NCBI GenBank assembly: GCA_001804285.1
Contig: MHFR01000068.1
Span: forward strand, 103,230 to 167,229
Direction of reading: 5' to 3'
Origin: Candidatus Danuiimicrobium aquiferis
GTDB lineage: Bacteria > Omnitrophota > Omnitrophia > Omnitrophales > Danuiimicrobiaceae
DNA: 64,000 nt
Below, in pieces: positions 36,419-64,000 of this stretch. The position numbers were made by a program, and so were the translations under genes. Within the stretch, counting starts at the first letter, position 1. The number at the start of each line of letters is the position of its first letter. Under the pieces are notes generated by a model. The model was not told where the DNA came from and did not search any database. It was given only the letters and a program-made list of their open reading frames with translations.

Positions 36419-39400
36419 ATGGCAGGTTCGACGAAACAGTTTATCTTAAGAATTATTGCGGGCGTTACATTATTGGCATTTTCAGTCAACCAAATTGGTT
36501 ATTCCAACCCAAGCCCGACTAATTTTTCAGCCCAACCGGTTACAGAGGTTCCGCTTCCGAATCCGGGATTCCAATTTTCGATTCCTCCAGAATTGGGGAC
36601 CGTTCAAAACCTGACATCCGGGTCGGGCGGCACGATCGTTCACATTCAAACCGCGCACGGAAATTACGAAGCCGAGAAACAAATTCAAGCGATTCTTCAG
36701 CATCTTCATGATCATTACGGATTTAATCTTTTACTTCTTGAAGGCGCCGGTGTCAAACTGAAACCGGAATTACTTCAATTTTTTCCTCAGAACAAAATCA
36801 AGACGTTTGAGCTTGCCGACAAGTTAACACACAAATCGCTCATGAAGGGTGCTGAACTATTTCTCATGCGGGCAAAGCGCGCGAAAGCATTCGGAATCGA
36901 AGACCTTAAAATATACCGGAGGAACCGGCGCGCCTTTTCGAGAGTCATGATGCGGAAAAAAGAAGCCGACGGGTTTTTGGAACAAATTGACCGGGGGATT
37001 AAACATTTTTCAGCTTTGTATTTGAATAAAGAACTGAGGACATTTTTAAATGAGTCGGAAGATTATGAAATGGGCAAGACGCCGCTTTTAGCATGGATCC
37101 GGTCGCTACAAAAAAATGCGGAGATTTTTTTAGATCTGGATTTATCCGATCCGAAAAATCAATTTCATTGGCCGATGACGCTTCGCCTGTTGAAATTGCA
37201 GGAGCTTGAGTCAAAGATTGATACGGAAAAGCTGGCGGAGGAGAAACGGAATTTTTTAAAGAAAATAAAACCTTTATTTGTGTCATTCCCGCAAAAGCGG
37301 GAATCCAGAATGATGGATCCCCACTTTCGTGGGGATGACAAGCAGTCTCGGATTGCATCGCCAATGTCCGGGACGACGGCTCGCAATGACGGCCGTCAGA
37401 ATAGGGGACAGGCAGTTCATCTGCCTGTCCCCTATTCTGGCCTGTACACCCAAATCGAATCCTTGCTCACGTCTCCCGCAAATATCCAGAATGAATTACC
37501 GGATCCCGAAACCGGACTTCTGTTCGAGAGGATGGCATCAAAACTTCCGAGGAATTTTAATTATCGCATGTACCCAAACCTGAATTATTTCATCGGCCGG
37601 TTAATTCTCCAAAGTGAAATTAAGGGGGAACTGTTACTTGCGGAAACCAATCATCTCGAAGAGTTGATTGTGAACCGCTTAGCGCAAAAAGAAGACGAAA
37701 AACAGCTTATGGAATTGCTCCGCGATTTTCATCTTTTAAAACGGTTATTCGCTTTAGCGCTTACGCCGGAAGATTACGAACAAATGACGAGCGATATCGT
37801 CCGTCATCCTGAGCCCCCAAAGGGCGAAGGATATGAGGAAAAGAGATTCTTCGCACTTCGCGCTCAAAATGACAGATTTCGTCCGAGAAACATGCTGCAA
37901 TCTTTTAACGCTTTAAACAAGGATAATCATGTTCAGAATTTACAAGTTGCTGGAATAAAAGATATCGATCTGCTCTATGAATCGGCTCTCGAATTTTATC
38001 GAATAGCGAAAAACCGTGATTGGGAAATGCTCGAAAATATTCAGAAGCGGATGAATCGGCTCGGTGAACGAAAAGCGATTGTCATTACTGGCGGTTTTCA
38101 TGCAACACCCTTCAAGAATTTCTTTTCTGAACACGGATATAGCTATGCGCAGGTTCGCCCCAAAATTTCCTCAACGGACGGATTCCAATCCTACATCGAC
38201 GCCATGCTTCAAAAATCCACGCTCGAGTCCCCGTATGTTTTCAGTATTCCGCCGGCAGAATGGATAAGGCACGGAATCAATCCAAGTTGGGTGAGACAAC
38301 AATTTTCTGCTGCGATGCGGGGGATGGCGGAGCGAAATCGGTCTGAAACGCGAAACAAAACAGGTTTACAAAAAGGGGACAGGCAATTGCTCAACAGGAG
38401 TCATATGCCTGTCCCCTTTTTGACTGACCAAAGCGCGCAAGAGTCCTCGATACGTTCCAAGGAGCATGTATCGAGGGCCGAAGCGCGCGGAAGAGAAGTC
38501 ACCAGTCGCCAGTCACTGGTCAATAGTGTTCCAGTGTCTAGTGATTTAGTATTTCAGGTAAGGGCTGAAGATTCCCGCCAGGGGCATGCGGGAATGACAG
38601 TAGAGCTCCATCGCAATGACGGTGCGTCAAGGGCCGAAGTCCGTCAGACGAAACAGGCGGAAATTGATACCCCGGCGTTTTATGCGGAATTGCCTAAAGC
38701 GCAATTAAGAAAAGTGGCATTTGCAATTCAGTTTTTGTTTGAAGATTCGTTTGCATGGCTTCCTCACGAAAAAACAGACATCAGCATCCCCAATATTGAG
38801 TCCGAACTGAAACGTTTACCGAATTACAAACTTAGGAACGAAGAAGAACTCGAGCGGATGCTTCCCAAACTGCGCCTCACAAACAGGGCAGCGCTTGTAC
38901 AATTTCTGGCGGTGTTAGTTGCATTGTTTGACAAAAAGGATGAAGAACGTGAGGCGGCGGAAAAGGCTGTGACGGAAACGGCTGAGGTGAAAAGCATAGA
39001 TGCTTCTACAGATGTTTCTCCTGAAGCGAAAAAATCGAAGTTATTCCATTTCGCTTTGCGTTTTATGGGGTTGGAAGAGCTTGTGCGATTTCGGACGATG
39101 AGGCGGACGAGCGGAGCGAGTAAGGAAGAGGAGAGGGCAGAAGATAAAAAAACGGATGCTTCGGTTGAAGCAGGTGAAGGAAAAGAACCGGATCAACCCG
39201 TTGACCGGCGGCCAACGAACGAAAAAGACGCTGCATTTTATACTCGAGATCTATATTTAACAGGCGGGCTGTCCCATCAAAACGCCTTGTCTAAAATTCT
39301 TGCATATCTTAAGGCCGGAATCGGTGATGTTGAAAGTGATTTGTTAAGGCAGCCGGTGTCGGATGTCCTTAAAACCTATGAGGATGATTTTCATCAGCGG

Positions 39401-42400
39401 GTTTTGAGCAGGGAGAAAATGCCATATTTTCAGGAAGTGGTTCCGGGTTTTGAGTGGCGCACTACCGTCCGGGATTTTCTTACATTGCATTGGAACCGGA
39501 TTCATTGGCCCGTTGTTTTATATCGTTTTATAGGATCGGATCCGGGCCGTTTTTTATTTTCAGCGCCTGTTTGGTTCATGATCGGTTCCTTTATCGGAGG
39601 GCTGACTGTCGCCGCTGCCTTTGCCGTCATTGTCAGGTATGTCTTGCGGCCGCTCTATGAAGGCGTGCTGTTTAACTTGGAAGCCAAAGCGATGAAACGC
39701 TATCGCGCAATGGCGTATGAGCCTTTTCCATACGGCCCGCATTTTATTTTTCAAGGAGATGATCTTTGGCGGAATGTCCGTCAAACCTATTTTCAAAGTG
39801 AATCGCTGATGCTTCCTAATGAGAAAAGTAATTCAGTCTTGAAGCTTTATGCGTTGGAACATGTATTGAAAAAATATCCTGGAACAAGGAAATATCGCTC
39901 CATTGTCCGTCGAGTGCGTGAGAGATTGTCATCCTCGTCTGAGTGGCCTGATATTCATGATGCGTGGACGATGGTTCATAATGCTGCAGTGCGCCAACGA
40001 ATTCAGATGAGTGATCCGGGCGTTAAGCTTATTCTTTATGTTCTTGAATTACCGGTAAGAGCGCCGCCGGCGACAGAAGCCCAAAGTCCACAAGGAAGGC
40101 GCAATTTTTATCAGCGATTGGTGCTGTTGATCCGCCGTTTGATTTTGATTGCTATTCAAAATGCAATTCTTCAACCCTTCCGGATATTGAGATCGTCTGT
40201 CTACTCTTTGAATTTGCGCGCAACTGCCCGGTTGATTGAGAAAATCGAAAATCGCATTAAAGCGTTTTTTAAATATCCTATCCGGGAATATTCAAGTGAA
40301 ATGTTCTCAAGCCGCAGCAATACGCAGGTTAAGAGTGTCATGGGCCTCCCTGATGAAGAGAAACGAAAACAAGAACTCATTCAATACTTAAAACAATTCA
40401 ACATTTCCGAGCTTGATCCTTTGATTGCGGAAATAGATCAAAGGCTCCATCTGAAATTCGACCGGTTTTTTGACAAGGAATGGTTCTCTCAAGCATTTTG
40501 GAATACGTTAACGGGGAACAGAGTTGTTTCCAATAAGAAAAGGAAAAATAAGAGCGAGGAAGCTATTGCTGAAAAACTTAGAGTTTTAAACGCACAATAT
40601 GAGTTTGATTTAGCCAATCACACGGTACTCCTCAATACCGAAATGCCGCTTTTTCTGAATGCGTTCATTTTGGTCAAGTTGGCCTCTCAACTTTATCAAC
40701 ACCATGTTGTGCGCGGAGAACGGGAAAATATCCATCTTCCTCCCGAAGAGTTGGAAAGCATTCCGAAGAAAATGTTGATGAAACTTTTCTGGGATGCGTT
40801 TAGAAACGGTAAGAAATATTTTAGTGACACGAAACAGCCGTATATGGGCAACTTGGCGATTTTTATCCTGATGATGGTGAAAGCGTGGGGTTGTAAAGTT
40901 TACTCATCGAATGACAAGCCGGGGATTCTTTACATTAAAACACATCGCATTACGATGCGTGCCATGATCAAGGCTAAAGAAGGGTTTGTTATCGGGAGCC
41001 ATTATCTTTTAGGAAAACGTTATCTTGGGATTACAAATCAAAAAAATTATCCTTTGGCAGAAAAAAAACACGGAGTTAGCAAGAAATTAAGTGCCGTATA
41101 TTCTATCCTTAAACCATTTTTTCCGATCCTCTCACAATTTGCCTGGATGCTGGGCTATTTGACTGCGGTGGTTGCGCTATTTAGCGGATTTTTTCTGCAC
41201 CTTGATTTAAGTTTCGTGATGCACTATTTGGATCAACTTATTCAGTGGCTGTCCACCATTGATTTTTTTGATATTGGGCCGATGATTGCGGCGATCTGGC
41301 ATTCAATTCAATCTGCGTACCATGATCTTGCGGCTGCGTTCAGCCAGATCCTTCATTATTTATTCGATATTGATCTGACATGGCTGAAACAGTTTTTCCA
41401 TGACCTGTGGCAAAGCCTTGAGCCTGTCCGTGCGTTTGTTGAAGATTATCTGGTGCCGTTTTTTTATCAATTTCTCGTACCCGCCCTGATTTTTGGATGG
41501 GGAATGATTTCCGGATTTCTTGCTTATAAAGTGCAATTAAGACAAAGGTTAATTCAAGTGGGAGATTACTTTATCTCTTTCGGAGCTCCAAAGTTGATTG
41601 CCTGGTTCATAACGGTTCCCGCTGTAATAGCTGCAACAACCCTGAATTTGAATACGGATAAAATTTTTGAATTTCGGGAACGGATTGAATCCGCACTTCA
41701 GACGAAATACATCGTTAAACCATTAAGTTTGATTTGGCATATGTTGGCCAATCTATTGTATGCAGGTTCTTTTCTCTTCGGCGTTGGTCTTTACTTTTTT
41801 ATGATGTGGCTGATTATTGATCCACAGCTTGGATTGTCGGGTTTAGCGGGCGGATTGCAGAGCTTAGGTTTGCCGGTACCGCCGATTGTGTTAATTGCCT
41901 ATGTGGCCGGCGTTGTTAGTCTTCCTTTTTCTTTTGTGTATGTTGTCTCGGATTTATTGATGAAAAAATTACCGGAACGCGGATTGTTTTCGGGCCGGCG
42001 AACTGTGTGGGGAATGATTGCGTTTTTGGGCGTGTTTGCCGTGATTACGCCGGTGGCTTTGAATTATACATTTCGTTCAAATTGGATGCGGTCAGATTAC
42101 GTTGCGAAAGAAAAGGCCAGGACGCTTTATGCAAAGCCGAGTATGGTTTATCACTATAGTTTGATGGGCAAAGAAGAGGCAAAGTTGAAAATTGAAGAAA
42201 TGAAAAAGGAACAAACTCAAAAAATTGAAGAAGTGAAAAAGGAACAAACTCAAAAAATCGAAGCGTTTAAAGCACAAATAGAACAAGCAGCGAGTCAACC
42301 GGCATATCCGTCAACGATAAGCCGGTTTAAGAAAAAAATAGAAGAGTTTTTTAAGCAGGACGACAAGAAAAAAAAGGTGAACGCGGTTGAAAGCAATAAA

Positions 42401-45400
42401 ACCGCAGAAGATATGCAAGCCTTCGTCCATTTCTTTTTCGAACGATTTTATCGATTTCAGAAGTATAAGGGTATGGAAAATATTGTTGATCCGGAAAACG
42501 GCATCCTGCTGGTCAAGACTATAGACGAGTTGAAATTGCATAAACAGGATATTTTGACAGCGATACAAAATAAGAATCGCGCAGTATATGGCAATATGCT
42601 TTTTTGGGAAGGACTATTCCGAACATTTGCTGTAAACGGTCCTGGTTTTTATGATGCGTTTACACCTGACGAATGGAAAACCGTTCTCAATCATGTTTTT
42701 GATGTGTTGGAGGGGAAAGTGCATTATCGGCATTTTCGCCAGCGTTATTTTGAAGAGAGGAAAGCACTCAATGTTATTGATTATTTTCTGTGGGGTAATT
42801 TATCGAGCTTGCACCGATTGCATCTTTATTTTGAGGGTGTTGGGACGGTGAAAGGCGATTTTCAGAAAGTATCCATTCTCTATCTAATGATGGCTGATAG
42901 TCCGTGGGGGTATGTTTTCCCAAGTGCGGATCATTTTACCGTATTAGATCCCGATCGTTCGGGTCTATATCTATCATTTTTTGAAGATCCGTCGATTGCG
43001 GTGGGGATTCCGGAAAATCCTTGGGCAAAATCCAATTCTAAGGGGGGGCTTCCTACTGCAAAAGCACCGCGTGTTGCCGTAAACGTTTCACCGGAAATTC
43101 GGAGTTTAATGGTTGAAACGATTGAGCGCCTTGTCAAAACAAAAACAGGGGATCAAGATGTTCAGTCTTTTATTTATTCCAGAAACCTTTGGTTTAATGG
43201 ACACAATACTGCCGATTTTTTGAAATCAGATCTGTTAAAGCAGGCTGCTCCGGTGAGGCCGAAACCGCTCAGCACAAAACCTTACACAACAACCAAGCCG
43301 GCAGAACGATCCGGAAACGTTCAGAGCCAGGGGCGGGCTGAAGTGCGCAATGTCACGCCAAAAACGGGGACAGGTTCTGTATCAGTGAAACCAGAACCTG
43401 TCCCCGTTCTGGCGAGGGCTGAAACTCGCGACGAAGCGTTGGGAGGGCGAGTGAGCGTGAAGGAAGAAGATGTCTTTAAAGGATCGAAACTTCTTAAATG
43501 GCTTGGTGCCGCGTTTTGGGGGTTGGGTTGTGCGGCGTTTCTTTATGGCGCATACGGCGTTATTTCGCTTTCGGATCTTTTTGTTTCCTACTTGCCGGTG
43601 CTTCTTGAGGGCTGGCTTATTATTGGAACTGCCGTGCTTGTCAGCCATTACAAAAATCAGTTGCAATATTGGACGCGGCTTTCATTGATGACCGGTGCAA
43701 CCGTGTCCGTTTTCTTGCTCTTTCACAAACTCGCCGCTTACTACTGGCCGGTGTTTGGTTTGAATCCCGACATAAAGCTGTCAACAAGCATGATCGTCCG
43801 CTTGCCATCTATCTTTTGCGGAGTTTTTATCAACGAGTTGATTCGGGTAAAAAGATTTTTTAATTTCGAATTCAAATTAGGCTGGGAAGAAGCGAAGCCC
43901 CATTTTATCAAGGCATTTAAATGGGCGATTTCTTACGGAGCGATTACGGGATATTATTTTTATGTTGTTTTGTACGGCTTTATCGGACCGTATATTCCAC
44001 AGGCGAATTATTTTCCGATGATGACACCTGATATGGGGACGGCGATGATGAAAATGTTTTTTGACCTCGCGGTGACGACGCCCCTTGTCAATATTTGGAC
44101 CGTAAGTGCGGTTAGTGTGGCCTTCGGAGAAGAGGTGGATGTTGCCCAAAATTGGAGAAACCAGCTGGAGGGTTTTCTGTTATTTTATCCTTTAACATCT
44201 CTTTATTGGATGGTCGCGCTTTCTATATCATGGTTTCTCTTCCCGGATGGCCTGGATGGTTTTCAGGCCTCTCATGCGCTTTTTTCCACTCTTTGGCAGA
44301 TAGCATTGCCGGTATTTATTGTTAAGTTTTATATCGGAAACGGAAAACGCGGCAAGTTGACCGGTCAAAAGCCTGCTCCGGTTCCTCATCTCATATGGGA
44401 AAACCAATCGGTTTCCGCAATATCCCGCAGAGTGGACGTGCGTCCCAAGAACGCAAACACAGGAATTACGGTAAACCGCAGCCATCTTCGTGCTTTGGCA
44501 ATCAATATGGTATTTGCCGGAGGAGCTGTGGCGGATAAAGCGGCTCAATGGGCGCTGAGTAAAACATTGCCTGTAGCGGCGAAATTGCTTTGGCCCGGAA
44601 AACCGCGGCGATCAAAGACGTCAGACCGTTCCGAAGTTCGCAACAATGAAAATAATGCCAAAACGATTGTTGATCGAGGCGAACAAGAGTCCTCGATACG
44701 TAGAGGGCTTGTATCGAGGGCCGAAGCGCGGCAGGAGGAATATGAAGTCGCGAGTCAACCGGCGGCTCCACATATCAGGAATTTGAAGCAAGTAGTCACT
44801 GATGTTCAAACAGCGGTTTCCGAACTCAATATTCGCGGCCTGGAGGTTTTTGTTTTCGGTTCGCGGGCAAATGGGAAACCAAGGGATGGTAGCGACTTGG
44901 ATTTGATCGTTTTAGTTTCCGAGACCATGGATCAGGCTGCTGCCATGGCGATTATTTGGCAAAATGATGAAATTGAAAAACGACTTTCAGAAAAGCTTAA
45001 AACAAAAAGAGATTACCGTGTGCAATTTCACGATATTAATCCGGCAACCCGGCGGCACTATTTTTATTTGTGGAAGACTCGACAGTTTTTTAAAAAAAAT
45101 ACCTATCTTTGGTTTGTTCAGGCAAATTCAATTCAAGGGTTTGAATTGCATGCAGATGGAGTTGTTCCGGTGGATCTTGATCGACTGGAAAGTTTAACGC
45201 CGCTGCCGATCAATCTTGCGAACGATATAGCAGGCTTATCTCCTGAACAATCTCGGAGTGAAACGCGGCAAATGGGATTCGCAGAAGAGGACGAGGAAGA
45301 CTCTGACGATGACTTCATGCTCGATGGTGAAGACCTGGATATAATGCCTGGCGAATTTTCAGTGAAGCCCCAACCGCCTTCCGGGGCTGCCAATCAATTG

Positions 45401-48400
45401 AGTGGCGGCAAAGAAGAAAAAAATAAGGGAAAAAGATTTCCAGCGGCGCGTCCTGATGATTATCCCTCTCCGGTTCGATCCATCATTTCCAGTGGACTTA
45501 AAATTGACGAGGACACCTCGCTTCCTTCTGCCCGACGGTCCGAAGTTCGCCTCAAAAAAGATAGTACAGAAGCGATGCTTCATCAAGGCGCACGAGTGTC
45601 CTCGATACATCCCAAGGGGCCTGTATCGAGATCCGAAGCGCGCAACATTTTACAAAAAGGGGACAGGCATATGACTCCTATTGAACAATTGCCTGTCCCC
45701 TTTTTGACTGACCAAAGCGAACGAGAGTCCTCGCAGTTGCGGCGAGGGCCAAAGGATGCCGCTGCGAGGGCCGAAGTTCGGTCGGATTTCAACAACGCGA
45801 CAGATGAACAAATCATGACTGCGCTAAAACAAATCGGGTTATCCGAGCGGCAAACCCGGAACCTTTCCACTTATCTTTCGAAAATCAAACGCGTTTTGGC
45901 ATCGGGCCGGCGGTTTCGATCGCATGAAGAACTCCGCGTATTCATGGCGGGTGTTTTGGGGGTGCCTGAATTGGCGGCGAAATTCGCAGATCATTTCTTT
46001 GAAAAGTCTGCTTCTCAGCCTGCGGCAAAGCCCAACAAAGCTCCTTCAAAATCATTTCAATTTAATAGAACAGTTGAACAGGTGATCGGCAAGATGCCTT
46101 TTAGCGTGAATGTTTTGTCAGGTCCGAACAGGAAAAAACTTTATGACGGAAAATACGTTCCCAATGTTGTTCAGGTTGCCAGCCTTGGCGTGAGAGAAAG
46201 AATAGCAGCAAGGCACATCGTCTATTCTAAATTTCTTGATGTGTTGGAAGAGTATACACACCTGACAGAAGCAGAATTGCTTCATATGGGTTTTGTCTAC
46301 AGGCAGGGACCTTCATCTTTATATCTTTCAGAAGTGGTTCGTCCTATTCTCCAATCAACCGGAGCAAGTCATGAAGCGCAATCGGCTTTGGCTCCGGCTA
46401 TTCTGGAAATTGCCAAAAGCATGCGCGAAGCCAAAGCGCTCAGCGGGGATGAAGTGCTTAAAGCCATTTTTTCTAATTTGGGTGGGATCGATGGACAATT
46501 CAGCCAGCTCATCGCCTATTTGAACCACATTCAATTTAACAAAGGGAAAAATCCGCGGCTGAAAGTGCCGGATGAGAAAGTACAAGAAATAAAATCCATT
46601 GGTGAAGTGGAAGAGATAACGATTTGGTTTGTTAAAGCCGGGTTCCTTACGAGTGTCGCAATGGCAGAAGTTAAATTCAAAAGTAGTACAAATCGAGCGC
46701 CCATTCGTTTTGCGATTAATGTCGCTAACGATAGAACGATTTCCGCGGAGAAAGTGAGGAATGCATATCGTCATATGCGAGCTGATTATGATTTAGATTC
46801 CCGGTTTGTTGCTGAACCGATTGGGTTGGGAACCGAGATTGCGCCGGTGATCATCAGTGAGTGGGTCGAACAGAGTGACGAACTTCATTTGTATGCGGAT
46901 ACCGGATTTCAGCAATTCCAGGTTTGGAGCGGCCAAAATATGCACAACAACCAAAAAGTTTCGCTTCAGGACTCCCGGAAAATTTGGCGACAAATTATTC
47001 AGATACAAACGATGTATTCCGGGGTGAGGCCTGACGGTGCCGGGATGTCACGGCCATGGATCAATCGCGGGGATTTTGTGCTGACGCGTGATTCGCAAGG
47101 GGAACCGCGTGTTGTATTAATTTGGGATGACAGAAGTAATCTTGTTACGGGACAGAAGATTCCGTGGGACGCTATTGATAGCGTTGTCAACAGTTTGATT
47201 TGGGGGGAAGTTGACCCGGACAGCGGAAAATATATTTGGGCAGATGATCCGGAATTAGCGATTCGAGCGATTGAAGACGGGTATTTAGAGCATAGGCAAG
47301 ATAAGATGGAGGCGAAAGCTGAACTGATCGAAATTCTTAAGATGGTCTATAGAAATAGACTTCCTGAAATTATTAGGCAGCCTTCTGTCATTTCGGCGGG
47401 TTTTGATGATTTTGATCCTGCTGAACTGGATCATTTTATTTCTGTCGCTAAGCATGCACACAAAGTGCTGGGCGAATTTTTGCAGCAACGTTCTGAAGTT
47501 CGGGAAGAATCTTTTGCGGTTGACGGTGAAAAAGACCTCACCATTGAAGAAATCGATGCGCAAATGAAGACGGACGGCTTTCCGGAAATGGAATGGTTAT
47601 GGAAGACATTCAAAGGGATGAAAATATGGAAGGGCGTAAAACTCCGGCGTATCAACTTAGCCGATATTGATCCCGGAAAAATTCAAGAGATGCGCACCAG
47701 GCATATGGGCGGTTTATTGGCGCGTCCTTTGGTCATGGCTTTGATGTCGGTTTCCATTATGTGTATTGCACTGTCCGTTTTTATGCTTTCCGTTTCTGCT
47801 CTGCAAGATGTCATGCTTTCGCTGCAGGGCTATCCTGTGGGTGATTGGCATAGTTTCTGGAAGAATAATGTCGAACCGATTTTTCGGATGTTTCGCAATC
47901 CGCTGATATGGATGGCGCTTTTATTTTCAACGCCGGTGGTTTTTTTGCCGGCAACGGCAATCAAGCGGGCGTTTCTGCTGTCCTGGAAGAAAATTTCCGC
48001 ATTGGACCTTGCGTTTATGTTAAGCAAACGGAATTACCGGGAATGGTTCGAGCAGACGCCGGGGGCGCAACAAACGGTCGCCAAACTTCGCGGCATGGGA
48101 ATCAATGAAAACTTTGATAATCCTGATTATGCTCGCCGCTATCGCGCCACGACCAAAGGTGTTGTGGAAGTGCCGATTCCTGCTGTCCCCAACGTTCATG
48201 CCGTTCTGAAGGAGGTACTCGGGGAAGTGCGTGATGGAAAATACGAGCGGGGCAACTACACGACCAGTCTAAAACACGGAAGGAAATCCGTGACGGCTTT
48301 TGTCGCGCAGAATAAAAGGGAGGTTGAGCTCAGCAAGCCGCCGAGGCCCAGGTATGCGTGGCCTATCCCTACGTTCATCGGCTTGCTCATGGGTTTTTAT

Positions 48401-51400
48401 TCGATCGTTTATTTCCCGAGGACGCCTATGTGGGGTCTTTATTTGGTCGTGATGTCCATTATAGCGCCCGGAATATATTTTGTAAGTACTGCGCTTAACA
48501 TTGCTCCCGGAATTTTATATTACAAAAGAACGCGAACCTACTTGTCTCAAATCATTGCGGGAAACCGCCCCAAGTCTGGAATTGAAATTAACATGGAACA
48601 ATTGGGGATTAATGTTCTGGAATATGAAAAAGAAAAAGTGTATGAAAATCGCGAAGCAGGGACGCGAATTGTTATCAGAAATAAGAAGACATTGGAAGGA
48701 GCCGTTAAATTTTTAACTTCGAGTGAGGATATCGGCAACTGTATTGCGCTTCATAATTTTGTGTCATGGGTCCTTCCGACTTTACTTGATGATGATGGCA
48801 TTCAACTGGCCGACATCTATTTCAAAGGGACGCACGATGTTTATACTCATCGGGCCCAAATGTGGATGGTCGCGGCGCAGGAAAATGGGGTTCCCGTATT
48901 AACGGTGAATAGTTTTGAATTCAATAATGACGGTTCCACACACATTAACCGCTTAATGCCGGAAGCGATTAAGGCGTTACAAGATGTTGCGGTAAGGACA
49001 GGGTTCAAGAAGCACATTTATGTGGGAATTTCAGAATTTGGGCGCGAATATCTGGATAGTCATTTTCCCCAGGGCAAAACACAGAATGACATTGAAAAGA
49101 TTCATCATCCTGACGCCGGCTACAGATACTATTTCGATTCCTATGCGTTGAGGGGATTTCCTTGGGGCCATAGGCGATATGTGTTTTTGAAAGAGAGAAG
49201 TCTGACTAAACGAATTTACGCGGTTATCTTTGGCATCATTGAGGTGTTTAAAGGAAATTTTTCAAAGGCCAAAGCATTTATTAGCAGCGCAAAAAACGTT
49301 CATAATTTCTGGGAAATTCCGGTGGAGAATGCTGGCCAAGCCATTAAAGAAACTGAAGAGGCTCGTTCTGAAGTGAGAACGCAAAGGCTGCTGGATGATA
49401 TTGGCCAGAATTCCGGAGATATTGTTCAGCGTTTGCATGACAGCCAGATCAGATATTTGGAGAAACAGGGTGTTGAAAAAAATTTTCTTGAAAGAGTCTC
49501 AAGGCTGCCGGTCGATGAATTGTTTTCCGAAGCAATTAATTATTTATTGGCGAGGGAAATCAAAAAAACAGGGGTCCGGCTCCTTCCTCAAGCCGAAGAA
49601 ATAGTTGATTTCATTTTACGGCAGAATCTTCCCGTGTTGATGATGACAGGGACACCGCATGACTATGTGAATTTGAGAATTGCCCATCATCCTCTTGCTA
49701 AGCGGATAGCCGAAAGTGCGGGGATTTGGGGCGCTCATGAAGACGAAATTCGTATGGGTTATCCCGGTAATAAACTTGGCGGCATACGGGCCTTATCCAG
49801 GGATCCGAAATACGGGGCGGGAAGAATTCTGAGTATCGGTGACGGCGAAGCGGAGAAACAGGCGGCAAGCAAGACAGGGAATCCGTTCGTTTTGATTGAT
49901 CCTTTGGTGCAGGAAAATATGACCGCGGTGCTTCCCGAAAAACCCATGATCGTTCACGATCTCGCCCGGTGGCGCGAATGGCTTCCAAATTTATTGGAAA
50001 AGCAGAATATTAAAATTGTGGTTTTTGATTGGGATGGAACATTGTCTGACAGTCAGTCGGCCGTTGAAGAAGTTCAGACAAGGCTTCTTTACGGGATATG
50101 GAAAGGTTTCAATGATGAAGCTTTAGAAGAACCCGAAATCATAGCAGAACTTTATGAAACATCTTTTGGGAGAGAAGCTCTGCGGATGATGCAAAGTATC
50201 CGCGGACTTTCAGCGCAACGAAGTTTCAGCGAATATTTTATGCCGTTGCTGATCAAACCCGCCCGTGCCGAGGTTCGGGAAAATGAAAATGAGTTACCTG
50301 AGGTGCCTGAACCGCCATTAGAGTTGGAATTAACGGGGAGTGCTTCGGTTTCCGATGAGACAGTGATTCTTCCTCCTGATGTGACTTCTTCACAAGGTGA
50401 ACAGCCGGAAGATGTAAAATCGGCGGAAGATCAGGTCCGGTTTGAAGACGAGGTTATCGAACCGGATGGCCAGATAGATACTGAAAAGTTAAATATTCAC
50501 ACTGCGATCTACGAACCAACCGGGAGTGGCTTACTTGATGAAGTTGATGAACAACGGGAATCAGTGGCGCCCGGAAATAATGATACGGTGGTGTTGGCAA
50601 GCCCTGTTTTGGATTTGTCGGGCGATTTGCCTGCGACATCGTTGAATATTGAAAATTTTATTAAAGCAGATCTTAAGCTGGGGATGCTTTCCGACAATTT
50701 AAAACAGTATGAAATTAGACATCATCAATCGGATTGGCTGATTGAACATGAGATTCGTGTGGCGGTGCTTGTGTTTCAACTCGGCAAACAATTGAAATGG
50801 GATCCGGACGAGTTAAGAGAACTTGTTTTTGCCGCGAGATTTCATGACATCGGAAAAACCGATTCGTCTATCAATCCGCTTATTGTTAATAAACCGGAAG
50901 CATTGACGCCATCTGAGAGAGACTTGATGCGTCGGCATCCGCTTTATGGCGCCAGGATTCTGGAAGAAGCCGGTGTCGATTCCAAACAGATTTTAGATGC
51001 GATGTATATGCATCACGAGGCGCTCGACGGAACGGGTTATCCGAGCCAGCTTAAAGGAGATTTGATTGATCGGGGCGGAAGAATTCTAAAAATCGCAGAT
51101 TCATTTGACGCAATGGCATTTGCCCGCCCTTATTCACAGCCGAAATCGCTCGAAACCATTTTGAAGGAATTAGAATCCGACCGCGGTTCACATTTCGATC
51201 CGGATTTGGTTAGGGAATTTGTGAAATTGGAAACTTTCCCCGCAGGTGGACGTGCCGAAGTACGTGACATGACGCCCAAAACTGGGACAGGCAATCGTTT
51301 CCTTTTCATTGGATTGTCAGACCAAAAAGGGGACAGGCATATGACTCCTGTTGAGCAATTGCCTGTCCCCTTTTTGACTGCCAAAGAGCTTGTATCAAGG

Positions 51401-54400: not shown

Positions 54401-57400
54401 TTTTCGCATGAAGGGTTGGCGCAGCCTTCGATGTACAATGCGGCGAACAATGCTTTGGATCTCCGGGTGAAAAACATAGCGCGCATGAAAGAGCTTCTGC
54501 ATGCGATTCCTCAGGATGAAATTGATGAGAAGGAACTGGAAATTCTTCTCCAGGTTTACATTGCGTCTGTCTCGACGATCTTCGGGGTGGCGTTTGGAAA
54601 AGCCTGGGACCGGGAAGATTTCGATCAACTAAAAGTACTGCTTGACGGCAAAGGGATTATTTCACGAAAAGTACTGGATCAGCTTGGTGCGGAGGGAAAT
54701 GTCCGGCCTGTCAAAGAAGCGATCCCGATCGCCGCGCTCAATGAAAGGTCCTTTGAATTTTCGCTTTCCTATTTCTTTCCCGAATTATCACCCGAACGCG
54801 TTTTGCATCTCGCGGTTTTGGGTTACGAGCTTTTTGATCGCATTGCCCGGGAAAACGTGATCGCCAACCGCACGTATGATGCCTGGCTGCTATTGAATAT
54901 GGTTTCAAGCCGTTCCTTTGATTCAAACAAAAATGTGAGAAATCACAGGGGGCTGATTAACAACCGTTTTCACACCGCGCCGATGGTTAAGGCGCTTGAT
55001 GATCTTCACGCCTGGCTGAAAAAACAAAATATAGATACCTCAACGGTAACGTATCCATTTTCCGGAACGGATTTGACCACAGCGCTTTTACTGACGGATG
55101 CATCAACTATCAGAATGTATGATGCGCTTCCGTTTGGAATGGATATGAATCCGCGTGACTATGAAGCCTATAAAATTTCCTATGTCGCGCATAAAGCGGC
55201 AAGCGGAATTATTCTCGACAATGTGGCGAGCGCGATCGGACACGCAAAAACGCCGCTCTTATGGGAGCTCGAGGCGATCGGGGCAAAAGACATTAAGATC
55301 GAGTTGGACGATGAAGACGTGAATATGTACCGCATTCATTTCAAATGGGCCTACGACAAAGATTCCCCTCTCAAGGAGCGGGTAATTGAATACCGGGAAT
55401 GGATTTTTGAAGAGCAGGAAGACTTTGACGGGGCCGTGGATCCGAAACGCGATACCGTTTATTTGCATAAAGGAACGATGGCAAGCGGGATTTATAGTTC
55501 CAAACTTCCGAACGTGATTATTTCTTTCGGCGGTGAGACCGTCAAGGGTTATCAAAAGATTCCGGTAAAGCGGATTATCCAAATTCCGGACCCGAAAAAG
55601 TTGGCGCCTGCCCACACATTCCGGTATCCCCAAATTTCGGAAGCGGCTGTGCTTATCAAATCAAAAGTTCCCCTTGAGCTTGCTTTACGCCCGGAAGAGG
55701 AAGAGGGAATTCAACCGCTGACAGCCGAGGAAAAGGACGCGATCCAAAAAAGCATTTCAATTTCTAACGGTGTCGCTGAGGTTTTGCGGGAAGACAAAGG
55801 AAGTATTTTGTTAACGGGTGAAACCGATTCGGCCCATCTTTTTGGAAAACGCCTGCAGTATCGCCAGATACCGGATGATTTAAAAGTTTCTGCGGTTCCG
55901 GCCGAATTGTACAAAGGCAAAAATGTTTTGGTGGTGCCCGGATATGGAAATCTTCCGTTCACATTAAAAGAATTGGGCGCCAGAAGTGTTGTAGCCATAG
56001 ATAAAGATCCGGGTGTTATAGCGTGGCAGCGAGCCAAACAGATTTACGCGGGCGATCCTTCAGTCCAAGCGATGAACCGCGATGAGGCCAAAGATCCGAA
56101 TGAATCACTGGAACGGCTTCACGAACTGGTCATGACGGACGCTGAGCCGATTGAGCCTGTGGACGGAATCCGTTTTGCAGCTGCTGATCTGACAGAAAGA
56201 CTACCGATTGAAGACGACAGCATGGATTTGATTGTCGTTCCTTATTTGTTTGGATTTGAGCGCGGGATTACGACGGTGGATGGTTTCGAACGCGGCCTTG
56301 CCGAAATTTTGCGCGTCGCGAAGCCGGATGCTACGATTATCATTTTGCCTTCCGGACTTTCAGACGAAGCGCAGTATGTGAAGGGAAGTAAACTTCCTGA
56401 ATTTTGTCGCTGGCTTCGGGCACAGCAGGGATTAGTCATTCAGGAAAGCGCGCCAATCCCGCTCTATAATTATTTAGATGATCCGGCACGGCAGACTACG
56501 CCGCCGCTCGGCCATTACGCGGCGATTTCCAATCAAGGGCCTTCTATTTTTTATGGAGACACCTACGGAAAGTTAACGCCTTCTGCAGGATCCTTTTTCA
56601 GGTCATTAAATCAGGAAATCGGCGGCTATCACAGCAAATTTCCGCAATATTACCGTGACCACATTGCAAACAGCCATGGTCAGATTCTGAAAGGTGCGGA
56701 AGGCTTGTCAGGGATGGCTGTGGTGCTGGGCCTCGGGAATGGAATCGATATTCCGTTGAAATTGTTGGCAAAGCAGTTTGACCGCGTCATTGTAATTGAT
56801 TTAGACGCGGAAACGGTGAAACAGACCGTGGCGAAATTGGACGAAAATCTGCGGCGCAAAATCGAAATCAGGGTGGACGACCTTTCCGGGATTCTGCCGG
56901 AATTCTCGCACGAGGTGGATAAAATTGTAGCAGAGGCTCCGAGTCCGGAGTCGGCGAGGGAACGCATTCTATCGTTGGCGAAATCGATAGAAATCAGGAA
57001 GAACGCTCTGGCGGGCGTTAAAGCATCTTATGTTACGTCGTCTGTTGTTCTTTCACAGCTTATTTTTACTGCGCATCAATATGCGGTGGATCAAATGCGA
57101 AAGCGGTTTAGCGTTGATGAATCGTTTCTGACCAGCTTTCTGGATTATCGAAAAGCATTCTTGTATGACTTAATGGTCAAGGTGGCGTCTCATTATTTGA
57201 GCAGCATTCATGGAACTGTTCAGCCTTCCGGACGTGTTTATTTTGCGGACGGGCTTCACGAAACACCCGTTGAGGAAAATGCTATAGGCGTCAGGCGCGG
57301 GCTTGCTCAGCCTGAGCCAAAGATTCCGGTTACGGTTTTTGAACTGATCGAACAATGGTTTACAAGGGACATTGCTCAGCACACGTATTGGGTGTGGGAC

Positions 57401-60400
57401 AATAAACCGCCTAAAGTAACCCAAGATCACAAGGGCTCTGTTTTGCAGGAAGTAAGCGATATCCTTTTGCCGAAACCCGCGGGCAGAACACAAACGACAT
57501 TGATCTATTCGCCTCCGGGGGGTGTTGATCGCAGCAGTGATCCCGCTTGGCAGAGTCTTAAGAAGAAAGCTGATTTGTATATTCATCTTTGGGACGAGCC
57601 GCTGGTCAAGAAATTTCAGCGTTTGAAACCGGAGCGTCTTGCGCCGACGGGCCGGAATTATTCTCATCATGACTATTCGCCCAATGTTTTTGGGGCGGAA
57701 GAAGAGAGAATCCATAAAGAGGCCATCCGGTATACGGAGAAAGGCGTGACTTTTTCAGAGGATTTTCAAGGCTCGGCCTTTGTTCTCATGGAACCGGGCG
57801 AAAATGATGTGATAGCGACGGCCATTGAACAGCCCGGTTTTGATGATCCTGAGATTGCTTTTATCGGAGAGAAAAACGGAAAATTAGTTGTCGGCGGAAC
57901 GCAATATTTTAATCCATTGTACTACCGGTACGATGACTTTCTGAAATTTCTATTAACAATGATTCAGGATCAGGGGATCCAATTGAAAGGACTCATGATC
58001 GGACATGAGGATTCGCCGAAACAGGATAACGCTGCCCGGCATTTTGTTGAAGAAGTGACTCGAATGGGAATTCCAACTGTCAGTTTTCCGCCCAGAAAAG
58101 AACCCGGTACGATTTTAGTGACGAAAGAGGGGATTGCGCGGCTTCACTTCAAAAAACGGGAGCATGCCCAGACTGTGCGAGGACCGAAAGCGGATCAAAG
58201 CGATGCTCGTTTGGAATTAGAGGTGGATCGATCGGCTACGGATCTCCGTTTGTGGAAAGATTTATTTCCTGAAGAGAAGACTTCTGACACACAACCGGTG
58301 AAACGTGACGTCTCGGGCGATGATTTGGTCAGAAAACGTTATTTGGAACTTCTCGATGACATGGAAAAAAGATTAGCTGAGCCGGTTGAATCTGAGAAGA
58401 CGTTACAGGCGCGGCTGGTCCGGGATGAAAATGAATTATCGCTTCGCGTGACCTATCAAAGAGAAGATCGCGTGTCTCATGTCGTTGTACGGTTTGATCG
58501 GCAGAAAGAGAAGGCGGAGGTGCGCGGATTTGCGGAATTGGTCGGTGAAGAGGACGTGACAGCCGCCGGAGTTAGAGGACGCATTGGCGTTCCGCTCGGT
58601 GAAGTGGATATTTTAGCGGCACGATACCGATTTGAGGGGGAAGTATCCCTGAGTGAAAGTGAAAGCAATTTTCGTAAGGGTTTAATGGACATCCTTCGGG
58701 CTGCAAGAGTAAAGGTGCTGGCGCATCTCTATCCGGAATTATCCCGCCCGCAGGATCGAACGGTAAAAGACAGTTCAGAACAGCCGAGATATCCTGTGCC
58801 TGGGAAAGAAGAAATCATCGAATTTTATGAAAAGCATGGCGATGATGGTTTTATCTATTTACCAAACGGTGCAAAGGTTCCGGTCGGAATTTATCAGCTG
58901 GATGACAAGACGCTGACGTGGTACCGGGGTTTGATTAATGAGTTCGGAAGGAATCTTAAAATTCTTTCCTTGGGTTCCGGCCGCGGAAAATTGGAATCAT
59001 TGCTCAAAGAAGACGGTCATCAAGTGACGGCCGTCGATTTAAGTCCTAAGAATGCGAGATACGCCGAAAAAGTGGGAGTTGAAACCGTCCTTGCCGATGC
59101 ACATCACCTGTCGCTTCCCGAAAAGGATTATGATTTGGTGATCGTTGTGGATTCTCTTGGTCAAATGGATCCGCCCGTCATTTTCCAACGGGCCAAAGAG
59201 CATCTCAAGGCCGGCGGATGGCTCTTTGTGACGATGGTGAGAACGGAAGCGAAACAGACACGGGAGGGATACGAAGTGACCAAATATATTCTCTACCCCC
59301 GGGGGTATCTCAATCATGAACTCACGAAAGCCGGTTTTGCCCCGACGTCAGAAGGGATGCTTCCGACGTTTGGTGATCCGCGCGGAATTACGTTTGAGTA
59401 TCACAATGCCGTGTATCAGCCTGCCCGTTCCGAAGCGCGGGCGCTTAAGCCGTTTTCCAACCTTTTTTGGTGGAGGAGTGAAAGCAATAAAAGGTTGAGA
59501 GAAGTGAAACATCAATGGAGTCGCCTTGAGCGGTTACTTATCAAGAAAGGAGCTAAACTTCAGGTTCAATTGGCGAGTTTTTGGCATGAAGAAGGCGAGC
59601 ATACGGATTTGCCGGATATGGATGTTTTGGCAGTGAAAAGTCTTTACAGCGGAACTGCTTTTGCGAGCTTTGAACTGCCGCAAGGCGCAATTACACATTT
59701 TTTGAAGGACGAAGAAACCTCGCTTGTCGCGAGGGGAAATCCGTTTTGGGCAAAATTTATGAGAGTCGCGAATGAAACTGTTTCTGAAAAAATGTTTGGG
59801 GTTGACGATTTTCGGGAAGCGTGGCGGACATTGAGAAGGTTGCGGCTCGAATATCGAAGGAAGGAAAAAAAGGAGCCGGTGCCTTTTAAAGTCAATCTTG
59901 CCGATCCGGTCATTTCCTACCGGAGTCTTGGTGTCGAATCAGATGGTTCAATTCGTCGCGATGATTTATTTGATTACTTAAAGCTCTCCGATAAACAAAG
60001 AGAGGAATTGGCCAGATATAAGATCGTCGAGATTTCTTCCGAGCAAAATCCGTCGGGCCGGGGAAAACTGATTTTATATTATCCCGTTAGCGCGGAAACG
60101 AAGAAATTAATCGAGAGGATCAAATCGCGATATAAAGAAGATTTGCGACAGCTTGGTTTTGCGGGCGGAGAAGCGGCGGATGAATTTATTCTTGAGCAAT
60201 TTCTTACGCCGGTGTTGATTGCTTTACGGGATGTGGTTCAAGTCCGCAAGCTTGCGGATGTGATTGCGCGGTATTTAAATGAACAAGGCAGTTCGAAAAT
60301 GCCGAAGGAGATGAAGGTCGTTCATGTCGGCGGGCTTTATCATTATCGAAGCTTGCAGAAAATTCTGGAGGCAACGGGGCTTTTCGAAGACGGATTGGTT

Positions 60401-63400
60401 TTTGAATTACTTGATCCTATTTTTGAATCGCGCGAACATATTCCGGATTCTGAAAAAGGAGTGCAGTTTTTTGCGGATCGAATTCCGGACTTAATTGATC
60501 ATACGTCATCAAATGGCAGTGAAATCCTTTTTGGCGATGCGTATTTTCTCAAGTTGTTCGGCGACTTCCTTAGAGAAACGGATTTTTGGTATTATCTGGG
60601 CGTTCTCAATCTGAAAGATAAACAATACGCGGCCTCCGTGAAAGCATTTGAAAAAGCGTTAGAACTTCACCCCGACGATCCGAGGATCCGGCAAGTGACG
60701 AAGACCTTCAAAAGGGCTGCTCCTGCATTCCACAACCTCGCGTTTATCGAACAAAGCCGGAAAGATTTCATCTTAGCGGCCGGTCATTATCGAACAGCCG
60801 TGGCTTTAGATCCTTCTTTGTTTCACGCATGGTTTAATCTGGGCAGAAGTTTGGGAAAATTAGAAAGGTTTCTCGATGCTGCGGAAGCGTTTCAGAATGG
60901 GTTGCGAGCTCTCAATGATCGCGAAAAAGAAGATCAAAAATTAGCAAGAGACTTTTGGGAACATCTTGCGGATGCCTATTCCCGGGCCGGAAAAGTGAAA
61001 GCAAAGGATTACATTTTAAATGAAGTACTCCGAAAGAGAACGCAACTTCCCACTAAACAAGAGTTGTCAGTCTTGTTTGAGAAATTAAATACTGTCGGCG
61101 AAAAACGTGCCGAAGTGCGTCACAATGAAAATAATGCCGAAGGGATCATTGACCAAAACGCACGAGTGTCCTCGATACGCTCCAAAGGGCCTGTATCGAG
61201 GGCCGAAGTGCGTTCGCACGCTCCTTATATTCCTATTTTTTCTACACGAACTGAAATTGCCCGTGCTCATGCTGTGATTAAACGGAGTACGGCCCGGAAT
61301 AAAAAAGTAAAAGAATCGAAAGCGATGATGGTATTGCTGCCGACAAAAGACGGGGGTGATAAGCTTCCTCTTTGGTTTGAAAGAACGATGGCGGATTTGA
61401 ATAAATTAAAAGGCTACCATATTGAATTGATGATTGCGTCGAACGGGTCCAGTCCCACGGATAACGCTCATGAAGTGATTAAAAATATAGCAGCGCAATA
61501 TATTCCCGAAGGAATTCCTGTTACATATATCCATATCGAACCGGACGTTGGCAAAAACGCCACTATTAATGTTCTGTATGAAGAAGCGTTAAAACGTTAT
61601 CAGGAAATTAAAGCGGAAAAACAAGCAGCAAAAAGTAAAAAGGGAACTTCTGATTTCAAAATGTTTCTTCATTTCCTTGATGACGATGTTTATTTTGGTC
61701 AAGACACCGAGTCGCAAATCGGAAAGAATATCAAACTTTTGGAGGATCCTGAATTCGCGCAGAAACGTACTGGTGTTGTTCCGAAGATTGTTAGTACAAC
61801 GCCTGTTTCACCGGTTATTCGCGGTGGGTGGAGTTTGTTGGACACTTGGAAATATTATTTTCAGCGCATGACGAATATCCGGAAGCAAGCTTTGGGCATT
61901 CCGCTTGTGCAAATTTACGGGCAATCATACACTATTGATATCGAAGATTTTCCCAAGAGCGGTATTCCTGACGTGCTGAGTTATGAAGACGCTTATTTAT
62001 CGGCGTTCTTTTATCCACATATGGTGACCAATCCTGATGCTACTCATGAACACGCTGAGCCTGCGACATGGGGCGTTTTTATGTCCCGTTATTTGAGGGA
62101 CGTCCGTCATCGTGCCGAATTAGGAAAGTTTTTTAGTTATGATCCGGCATTGAAAGAAAATTTTGACCGGTTTATCGAAGAGAGAAGAAAAAGCCATCGT
62201 GTACTGACCGAGGCATTAAAGCAGAAATTTCAGTTTTCTCCGATTGATCGAATGTTACTCAAGCTGAATTTGGGGTTGAAACATAGGCTTGACAAAATTT
62301 ATGCACAAGGGAAGGCGGAAAAATATTTGGAGCAAGAAGGGCCAATGATCAGAGGGACGAATGTGGGCAATGTGGACTTGATTAGCGTGAATCCAAAAAC
62401 CTATGGAATTGCCACGAAAGAAGGTGTGATTTATACGGAGCCCGAGCAGTTATGGAATACGGTTGTCGCGATGGGGCTTGATACGGATTTGAACAGACGT
62501 CTAAACATGGGCGAAGTTTTGAAAACGATTGCCGACAACCGAAATTTAAGCGAGGAAGATAAAGTTCATTTGAAGCAAACATTGGAAGAAATTTGGCAAA
62601 GCTTTGGAAGAACACCCGCGGAGGAATTGACAATTGAGGAATTTGCCGTATTTCTTAATGATCAGCGAAACCTTGGTCCGGGAGCACGGTTTCTTACCGA
62701 ATATTTAATTAATCAAAAATTATTTTTGCTTTATCATGCCAGCCATCAACGTGATGATTGGTTGCTTGCCTATTCTGCCATGATTAAATTGATCGGTTTT
62801 ATCCGTGAAGAGGCAACGATTGAAGATTTGCGTGAATTGCTTCGGATTGCAAGAAAATCAAATATTCCGATCGCATATAGATTATTGGCAGAAGTGATGG
62901 ATCGGGTCATGCAATTGGAGGAACCTATCGAAATAGCGGGACAATCTTATCGAGTCATGGAAAAAATAGAAGGCGGATTTGTGCTGGCCGATGGTGATCC
63001 TCAAAAGTTTGAGCCGACTAGGTATTATGTGGCGAGTCATATTGTTCCTGCTGAACATGCCCGGTTACAGCGGATGAGCGAATTGGAGCCCGTTCATTTT
63101 GTAAAACCCATTGTTTATGATGAAGTACTCCGAATTCAGGTGGCAGACAGAGTGAACGGTCAGGGGTTTAATGATTATGTGAATCGCTGGCACCGCGTAT
63201 GCAGCTGGCTGGAAATTGCTATTCAGATCACCAAATCGGCAATCGCTATGCATCAGCAAGGATATGTTCATGGTGATCTCGCGCGGCCGTATGGTGTTGT
63301 TACTTTGGATCCGGAGCAATCGGATCAAGTGGTGTTGACAAATACCGGTCTGGCCGAATGGGCCGGGCATTTATCCGAGCGGGCGGATGTTTATGGAATT

Positions 63401-64000: not shown

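Follow-up and report, generated by a model that had tools for sequence, protein, structure and literature searches.

The last 27.6 kb of the 64,000-nucleotide stretch of Candidatus Danuiimicrobium aquiferis DNA analysed here (the window) is occupied by the 5′ part of one giant gene, which starts at an ATG at position 36419 and is still open at the window edge. It is a single real gene of this organism, a member of the Omnitrophota from Rifle aquifer groundwater. On the balance of the evidence, its product is probably an exported, membrane-threaded multi-enzyme protein, possibly processed at a short recurring motif, R-[S/A]-E-x-R. In the mechanism that we propose, a leader would export the chain, membrane segments would alternate with enzyme modules, and the chain would be handled one module at a time, with the motif as the recognition site. 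Throughout, coordinates are window positions, and amino acid (aa) numbers are residues of the window open reading frame (ORF) counted from ATG 36419.

Computed translation of the plus strand from ATG 36419 to base 64000 gave 9,194 sense codons and zero stops, as claimed in the first-pass annotation, a model's reading of the letters that preceded this analysis. The remaining five frames of the same interval contain 263–617 stops. The frame is open from 36410, immediately after the TAA at 36407–36409, and ATG 36419 is its earliest start codon, so the proposed start also holds. The gene had been described as missed by the mechanical ORF list, and so it is, because the ORF runs past the window end. 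A codon-usage model trained on the 27 upstream genes and slid along the interval in steps of one 900-nt frame test preferred the giant-ORF frame every time (60/60; smallest log-likelihood margin, 38 log units). Even where database matches are lacking, the sequence thus has the appearance of coding DNA. An exact match of the small cupin gene just ahead of the giant gene placed the window on NCBI contig MHFE01000007.1 (GCA_001805325.1, 219,972 bp; window base 1 is its base 103,219) and on a European Nucleotide Archive (ENA) re-assembly scaffold of 219,855 bp, and a comparison of 20 kb showed no difference from either. Both assemblies have the gene called at this ATG, with a 15,706-aa product, and 7 further similar places are recorded. 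Neighbouring proteins are listed under Omnitrophica bacterium RIFCSPLOWO2_12_FULL_44_17 (taxid 1801832), a name since replaced by Ca. Danuiimicrobium aquiferis. The true 3′ end, which the first-pass annotation had sought, falls at window-equivalent 83,539, about 19.5 kb past the window, as calculated from the recorded product length only.

The gene belongs to a large family defined by its N-terminus. A homology search with aa 1–5000 returned 90 proteins of 2.7–7.8 thousand aa (kaa), all matched only within query aa 6–640, at 25–41% identity. This conserved N-terminal module sits at the protein's own N-terminus in 90/90 homologues, and all named ones are Omnitrophota. Their tails carry varied complete enzymes, among them hexokinase, PGI, TIM, aldolase, enolase, PGK, PGM, GDH, adenylate kinase and UDP-glucose dehydrogenase (UGDH). 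All matches of the protein searches are at most 7,830 aa long and the 15,706-aa product itself was not returned; the protein set searched seems to leave out very long proteins, so that giant homologues are under-sampled here. A profile search of 1.84 billion cluster representatives gave 9,227 matches at E <= 1e-3 and 5,637 at E <= 1e-30, the module being N-terminal in 150/150 of the profile matches listed.

The feature on which the proposal turns is the motif. RAEVR and RSEVR are the commonest 5-mers of the window ORF; counted as R-[SA]-E-[VALMITS]-R, the motif occurs there in 19 copies versus 0.18 in shuffles, and in zero copies in the neighbouring proteins (10,912 aa). Across the family (207 proteins, 760,830 aa), 1,507 copies stand against 18 in shuffles, an 84-fold excess, and in the same proteins replacing R by K, or E by D or Q, brings the count down to background level. 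Among the first 91 proteins the most frequent 5-mers are forms of the motif, as they are in an independent set of 116. Its flanks carry nearly no information, with small residues favoured at −1 and +1. The motif codons vary synonymously both here and in the homologous gene of another species (CGN and AGR for Arg, TCN and AGY for Ser), and this free variation indicates that selection acts on the protein.

Motif copies are placed with respect to domains. The first copy directly follows the N-terminal module in 71/90 members, and the median spacing is 210 aa. In one relative (P0048), a hexokinase (1094–1552) lies between copies at 1075 and 1561, and an adenylate kinase (3137–3313) between copies at 3106 and 3398, with a response regulator beginning 13 aa past the latter. 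In P0064, a PGI (3389–3896) is bracketed by copies at 3331 and 3946, and in P0049 a UGDH begins 12 aa past the copy at 954. Overall, the motif stands 9–31 residues ahead of Pfam domain starts. In the window ORF it bounds the nucleotidyltransferase (NTase), HAD, HD-GYP, third methyltransferase (MTase) and TPR modules. Inside alignments between family members, 155 copies were found versus 428 expected at random placement. Where copies do fall within colinear alignments, they lie opposite a partner motif in 45/70 cases, with column identities of 0.74, 0.79 and 0.73 for R, E and R versus 0.17–0.26 in the adjoining columns. Within about 10 residues of the motif, hydrophobic residues fall and P, S and G rise.

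Cysteine content provided a second line of evidence. Of the 9,194 residues of the window ORF, 8 are Cys (0.087%), versus 1.26% for the genes upstream. Across the family the median is 0.055%, many members of 3–7 kaa have zero, and the value for the independent set of 116 proteins is 0.096%. The only Cys of P0051 (6,262 aa) is the UGDH nucleophile in GGSCFPKD, and one of the two in P0049 (3,996 aa) is the same catalytic residue. The sparing of catalytic residues argues that the enzymes are functional and that Cys is selected against wherever it is non-essential. A low Cys content is common among proteins that pass through membranes in the unfolded state or function outside the cytoplasm. The N-termini agree: 160/170 members with intact starts have a K/R-rich n-region without acidic residues followed by a hydrophobic h-region, and A-x-A follows the h-region in 83 of these 160, as would be expected of Sec-type leaders. 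The corresponding N-terminal helix of the window ORF is likewise read as a signal peptide or signal anchor of Sec type. The hexokinase and GDH of P0048 follow the leader with no hydrophobic helix in between. Together, Sec-type leaders, Cys depletion and this lack of an intervening helix support an extracytoplasmic location, and leader and Cys depletion suggest that large parts of the chain are exported or exposed outside the cytoplasm.

The N-terminal module has the look of an enzyme. H80, E108, G159/E161 and T557-G-G-F-H561 are invariant in an alignment of 33 modules. The AlphaFold2 (AF2) model computed with this alignment (predicted local distance difference test, pLDDT, 82.6) consists of an N-terminal helix, a disordered spacer and an alpha/beta core (aa 60–180 plus 513–600) divided by a long helical insertion. 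With moderate confidence we assign it an Ere/ChaN/Tiki/TraB-like fold, as a putative member of that superfamily; H80, E108 and GGFH561 presumably correspond to its His/Glu/GxxH catalytic pattern. The best Pfam scores over the 33 modules were PF04187 (ChaN/Tiki; E 0.004, in 6/33) and PF18950 (DUF5694; E 0.02, likewise in 6), both below cut-offs. Foldseek of the model against the PDB gave nothing significant, and a profile search of PDB sequences and NCBIfam gave no match. Comparison with E. coli YbaP (TraB family) by hhalign was non-significant (probability 0.2%), the only aligned segment placing GGFH opposite GALH. The module also differs from the Ere/ChaN/Tiki/TraB-PrgY superfamily in that its core is divided by an insertion of about 330 aa and fused to multi-kaa tails, and in that the superfamily profiles miss significance.

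Taken one step further, the handling at the motif would most likely take the form of proteolytic processing into separate enzymes, although on its own we hold this step to be less likely than not. The hydrolase-like N-terminal module would then be a candidate protease or esterase for the processing, and released or tethered enzymes might work at or inside a host or prey cell, a role already proposed for the phylum. The most far-reaching form of this idea, which we judge rather unlikely, is that R-[S/A]-E-x-R would be the processing site of a polyprotein system present in thousands of Omnitrophota genes: Sec-exported, Cys-free enzyme strings headed by an Ere/Tiki-like hydrolase, cut into enzymes that would act outside the producer's cytoplasm, for instance in a host or prey cell. 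The chain shares with MARTX toxins and viral polyproteins a site recurring between functional units, here a putative cleavage site. Unlike MARTX toxins, the window ORF has no RTX repeats and no cysteine-protease domain, and R-[S/A]-E-x-R bears, to our knowledge, no relation to the sites described for MARTX (Leu) or to those cut by viral proteases.

Several observations weigh against an exported protein processed at the motif. The motif is absent from 19/90 relatives and from a 2,676-aa stretch of the window ORF itself (aa 4999–7669), and the AF2 model places its first copy inside a terminal helix and not in a loop. The giant ORF's own leader has an Arg within the h-region and no A-x-A. Enzymes dependent on S-adenosylmethionine (SAM), NTP or cyclic di-GMP make little sense outside the cytoplasm, and the topology comes from a Kyte-Doolittle scan alone. 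No type II secretion/pilus or other secretion genes were found in the upstream 36 kb. Finally, cleavage is something that we infer, and the N-terminal module, if periplasmic, could not reach motifs located on cytoplasmic loops.

The placement of the motif in a helix, and its position shortly ahead of domain starts, where it reads as an N-terminal tag, would both suit a product that remains uncleaved: a scaffold made of one membrane-threaded chain, in which the motif serves either to dock a chaperone, a secretion ATPase or a partner protein or as a structural cap where each module starts. Published surveys describe membrane-anchored single polypeptides, and no C39 or S8 protease domain was recognised by Pfam in the first 9,194 aa. 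We nevertheless hold this to be on the unlikely side, since strict R and E positions, uninformative flanks and the bracketing of whole multi-domain enzymes are typical of polyprotein recognition sites. Moreover, linkers with paired motifs tolerate junk (the hairpins described below), which is most readily understood if the linkers are discarded.

Another way of accounting for the enzymes is that they never leave the producer's cytoplasm. The N-terminal helix would then be an anchor only, and the modules, facing the cytoplasm, would act as a membrane-tethered array, a single fused assembly line for metabolism or regulation. The substrates that the NTase, HAD, HD-GYP and SAM-MTase modules require are cytoplasmic, and Nielsen & Lui weigh the same reading for their class with transmembrane (TM) helices only (10.64898/2026.06.07.730766). 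We find it fairly unlikely: the n-region charge and A-x-A sites of the family fit Sec signal peptides, a family-wide loss of Cys down to catalytic residues would be unexpected next to neighbours at 1.26%, and relatives exist without a hydrophobic helix between leader and enzymes.

The product is non-repetitive and modular, and membrane segments alternate with independently folding enzyme or binding modules; Pfam and PDB sequence searches recognise about 10% of it. Table 1 gives the coordinates. The NTase module, with its GS...DLD motif, is flanked by RAEAR (aa 2767) and RSETR (aa 2946). HAD (DxDGT) lies between RSEVR (aa 4316) and RAEVR (aa 4616), and HD-GYP (HDIGK and HHExxDGxGYP) between the latter and RAEVR (aa 4945), while RSEAR at aa 7670 (59426–59440) follows the SAM-dependent methyltransferase. 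The catalytic motifs of these four modules read as intact. Hydrophobic helices, located by Kyte-Doolittle scan, give 14 peaks (aa 8, 1054, 1234, 1570, 1685, 1726, 1782, 1823, 1863, 2389, three within 3772–4004, and 6040), in agreement with the signal-like N-terminus and blocks of TM helices noted earlier; the region of aa 1054–1881 has no Pfam match. The five checkpoints offered by the first-pass annotation (41138, 44831, 50720, 58958 and 63221) were independently recovered as TM block, NTase, HD-GYP, methyltransferase and kinase-like segment. Its NTase, HAD, HD-GYP, three SAM-MTase-like segments and TPR all came back in Pfam. Its GT-A glycosyltransferase and kinase-like domain fared less well. 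The former scored 14.7 bits with Pfam Glycos_transf_2 (E 0.03) versus a cut-off of 23.3, and the PDB sequence search gave it no support. The latter has kinases as its best PDB matches (E 0.024 and 0.12) and contains 'ADVYGIGSLLY', with 'HGDLARP' for HRDLKPxN and 'NTG' for DFG; it is probably inactive, a pseudokinase-like segment. A single-sequence AF2 model of aa 8262–9194, covering both, had a pLDDT of 35.8 and was discarded. Weak relatives of the kinase-like segment (24–26% identity, over residues 449–565 of a query made of the last 700 aa) occur in metagenome-assembled genomes of Planctomycetota (Sedimentisphaerales and Tepidisphaeraceae; loci L007–L009, L011 and L012), the sole matches outside Omnitrophota.

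Table 1. Features of the giant gene within the window
Feature	Position	Strand	Residues (aa)	Evidence or content
Giant gene, 5′ part	36419..64000	+	9,194 of 15,706 codons (59%)	Zero stops; codon usage 60/60; called on two assemblies
N-terminal hydrophobic helix, K6 before it	36431..36499	+	5-27	Kyte-Doolittle peak; AF2 helix 5-27
Conserved N-terminal module	36584..38338	+	56-640	Homologues, alignment, AF2
Genome-specific insert, low confidence ('SFPQKRESR..DPHFRGDDK..')	37283..37439	+	289-340	pLDDT <50 at aa 302-339
Linker cassette 1	38339..38644	+	641-742	RSETR, hairpin A (38369-38422), hairpin B (38433-38488), RAEVR
Hydrophobic-helix region	39578..42061	+	1054-1881	Kyte-Doolittle scan
Nucleotidyltransferase module	44732..45253	+	2772-2945	Pfam NTP_transf_2 aa 2798-2856
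Linker cassette	45536..45781	+	3040-3121	RSEVR, RSEAR, hairpin A (45653-45706), RAEVR
Module with three hydrophobic helices	47492..49366	+	3692-4316	RSEVR at aa 3691 and aa 4316
HAD-phosphatase module	49379..50263	+	4321-4615	Pfam Hydrolase/HAD from aa 4531
HD-GYP module	50279..51250	+	4621-4944	Pfam HD_5 aa 4770-4930, E 6e-31
Linker cassette	51251..51412	+	4945-4998	RAEVR, hairpin A (51323-51376), RSEAR
Long motif-free conserved block, one hydrophobic helix (aa 6040)	51743..58453	+	5109-7345	Colinear with P0098
Weak SAM-MTase-like segment	56030-56344	+	6538-6642	Pfam
Weak SAM-MTase-like segment	56726-56932	+	6770-6838	Pfam
SAM-dependent methyltransferase	58946..59350	+	7510-7644	Pfam; GxGxG motif
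TPR repeats	60542..61090	+	8042-8224	Pfam and PDB sequence searches
Linker cassette	61106..61213	+	8230-8265	RAEVR, hairpin B (61157-61214), RAEVR
Possible GT-A/GT2-like segment	61376..61588	+	8320-8390	Sub-threshold Pfam Glycos_transf_2
Kinase-like segment	62966..63598	+	8850-9060	NCBIfam Bud32 E 7e-4, below cut-off

Five linkers of the gene, each built of two RxExR copies around a spacer, resemble one another in DNA sequence and contain perfect inverted repeats of 17–19 nt, with predicted RNA folds of −33 to −75 kcal/mol (z down to −10). The strongest fold is that of linker cassette 1 (−75 kcal/mol, z −10.2), where the 3′ arm of hairpin B encodes RAEAR and where two other public assemblies break. 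The genome-specific insert of the N-terminal module holds a further perfect hairpin with 19-nt arms (37397–37439; −43 kcal/mol, z −9.5). Two types can be distinguished. Hairpin A (CAAAAAGGGGACAGGCA / TGCCTGTCCCCTTTTTG) is found at 38369–38422, 45653–45706 and 51323–51376, with variants at 37397–37439 and 43363–43408. It is in frame, translated as 'QKGDR...PVPFLT', and confined to linkers or a low-confidence loop. Hairpin B (..GAGTCCTCGATAC..GTATCGAGGGCCGAAG[C/T]GCG) is found at 38433–38488 and 61157–61214, with related sequences near 44690–44731 and 45600–45643. Its 3′ arm encodes the second RxExR of the cassette, and its outer stem shows a compensatory change between copies (GCGCGC/GCGCGC versus ACGCAC/GUGCGU). 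The hairpins are not present in the homologous gene of another species.

Different palindromes, perfect or nearly so, are found in the upstream intergenic regions, at 27511–27555 (22-nt arms, 1 nt apart), 1016–1054 and 1117–1163, which suggests that the genome harbours several families of palindromic elements resembling repetitive extragenic palindromes. We interpret the hairpins of the giant gene as genome-specific palindromic elements tolerated in linkers; they may act in mRNA processing or ribosome pausing. Rickettsia palindromic elements are known as in-frame palindromic insertions in coding sequence. As there, the repeats here are perfect, hairpin-forming, in frame and located in surface or linker regions. 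They differ in sequence, are limited to the linker cassettes of one gene and, unlike the Rickettsia elements, include stems that contain motif codons.

Beyond the N-terminal module, searches with aa 745–5000 and aa 5001–9194 returned five proteins only (P0094–P0098). P0094 shares aa 3692–4356 (38–54% identity), the homology beginning at the motif at aa 3691 and lying at a different place in its own chain. P0096 matches aa 3707–3973, P0095 and P0097 match the HD-GYP module, and P0098 (5,942 aa, 0 Cys, no motif) is colinear with aa 5109–7345 at 47% identity over 2,237 aa. Modules are therefore shared piecemeal among otherwise unrelated giant proteins.

Modules that recur elsewhere in giant proteins, such as aa 3692–4316, with homology starting at a motif, together with five cassettes alike at the DNA level and carrying perfect hairpins, are what would be seen if motif and cassettes were joints of DNA recombination, scars or homology patches with no role in the protein. 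We consider this improbable. The five motif codons differ synonymously from copy to copy and also in another species, replacement by K or D is not tolerated, the hairpins are missing from the homologous gene, and the motif is conserved while its flanks diverge. Recombination joints could nevertheless be compatible with a role in the protein, and could explain the origin of the motif. A DNA repeat as the general explanation of the motif was rejected on the same codon diversity, though the five cassettes of this gene are DNA-level repeats.

Three other public contigs follow the gene for about 2 kb only: two terminate near 38,470, at a hairpin repeat, and the third (L003, ENA ERZ27254756 k141_1073181) diverges at 38,397. 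The last ~92 bases of the latter are a local duplication of window 38302–38381 followed by the Illumina adapter AGATCGGAAGAG. A strain variant in which the N-terminal module continues into something else was considered for this divergent end and rejected on the nature of its tail. The breaks are assembly breaks and no evidence against contiguity. An assembly artefact concatenating unrelated genes, to which these two stops and one divergence might have pointed, is effectively excluded, since two assemblers gave an identical sequence with the same 15,706-aa product, two out of three random joins would break the frame, codon usage stays uniform along the gene, and long colinear homologues exist (47% identity over 2,237 aa with P0098, 54% with P0094). 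The in-frame stop that would have spoken against the first-pass annotation was not found, and its reading of one uninterrupted giant gene is supported. No match was obtained in tRNA and Rfam scans of the window, nor any internal protein repeat in a self-BLAST of the ORF product. The sole tandem repeat in the ORF, at 42188–42263 (33-nt unit, 2.3 copies, 95% matches), encodes 'KIEEMKKEQTQ'.

The statement that such genes are rare in bacteria needs context: the giant gene itself is not new, being an instance of a known phenomenon in Omnitrophota and already called publicly. Proteins of at least 10 kaa are present in 94% of complete Omnitrophota genomes and ORFs above 20 kb are common (10.64898/2026.06.07.730766; PMC10066038; 10.1101/2023.11.21.568195), in the survey of Seymour et al. 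2023 across the classes of the phylum (PMC10066038). Nielsen & Lui 2026 analysed 916 proteins of at least 10 kaa, 94% of them with TM helices or a signal peptide, and derived an extracytoplasmic reading from topology prediction (10.64898/2026.06.07.730766). An exported product as proposed here agrees with the topology, secreted and membrane-anchored, that has been reported for the giant proteins of this phylum. The 'multi-enzyme metabolic cluster' class of Nielsen & Lui has as its Pfam module 1 methyltransferase/HAD/HD (10.64898/2026.06.07.730766). The gene described here, with 27.6 kb open within the window, 15,706 aa on record and 14 Kyte-Doolittle peaks including the N-terminal one, fits this class: it is above 10 kaa, has many Pfam families with none dominating and a signal peptide or TM helices, and shows the same domain set, with the same paradox of metabolic domains on a protein with signal peptide and TM helices. 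The conserved N-terminal module, the linker motif and Cys content are unmentioned in that paper, whose text contains none of the terms 'motif', 'linker', 'cleav', 'cysteine' and 'polyprotein' (10.64898/2026.06.07.730766).

West-Roberts et al. defined 'Archaeovorin' and 'Dockerin' types, with N-terminal regions generally lacking identifiable domains (10.1101/2023.11.21.568195). Like the Archaeovorin type, the gene here is a very long Omnitrophota ORF, mostly unannotated, with many hydrophobic helices, scattered methyltransferase, HAD, TPR and possibly glycosyltransferase domains, and an N-terminus without database domain. The defining set of that type lies above 30,000 aa, versus 15,706 aa for this product, and SecA-DEAD (PF07517), NUDIX, glycoside hydrolase and peptidase domains gave no Pfam match in the first 9,194 aa. 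The type is described with glycosyltransferases, methyltransferases, glycoside hydrolases, peptidases and NUDIX domains, with a divergent SecA DEAD-like domain in most members, and with a T2SS/T4P-like locus ahead of the gene and pilZ and sugar-import genes behind it (10.1101/2023.11.21.568195); such a locus is absent from the 36 kb preceding the gene here. For these authors, missing information on cleavage points blocked divide-and-predict, and cleavage was left open (10.1101/2023.11.21.568195). Our literature searches with the motif strings returned no relevant paper, only unrelated alginate-lyase papers, and found none joining Omnitrophota with 'polyprotein'. The motif, the N-terminal module and the catalytic-only cysteines appear undescribed in the literature searched.

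The 36 kb upstream of the gene contain an O-antigen/exopolysaccharide cluster, an amidase, FeoB, an AsmA-like protein, a helicase, Dus and a cupin protein. The polysaccharide/O-antigen cluster (1–20000) comprises a Wzy_C ligase-like gene, four GT1/GT4 and two GT2 glycosyltransferases, an ABC exporter, a carbamoyltransferase and a WecA-like GT4, and is followed by a LysM-amidase_2 gene (19103–19909). The sigma70 promoter that the first-pass annotation placed at 36244–36272 did not stand: a −35/−10 match is there (9/12 positions), but it is no evidence of a promoter because the 900-bp AT-rich stretch has 8 such sites versus 3.7 in shuffles.

The value of these results lies in features of the family more than in the gene itself. 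No Pfam or NCBIfam model covers the N-terminal module, which stands at the head of at least 9,227 protein clusters and is a candidate for a new family definition. The near-total loss of Cys is independent evidence on the place where the enzymes act and bears on the paradox of metabolic enzymes carried behind signal peptides. As for the question addressed here, whether bacterial giant proteins act as one chain or are cut, the motif gives candidate boundaries that can guide proteomic searches, divide giant sequences for structure prediction and serve as targets for mutagenesis. Whether and where giant proteins are cut thereby becomes directly testable and, if processing at R-[S/A]-E-x-R were true, the motif would provide the first cleavage map for bacterial giant proteins.

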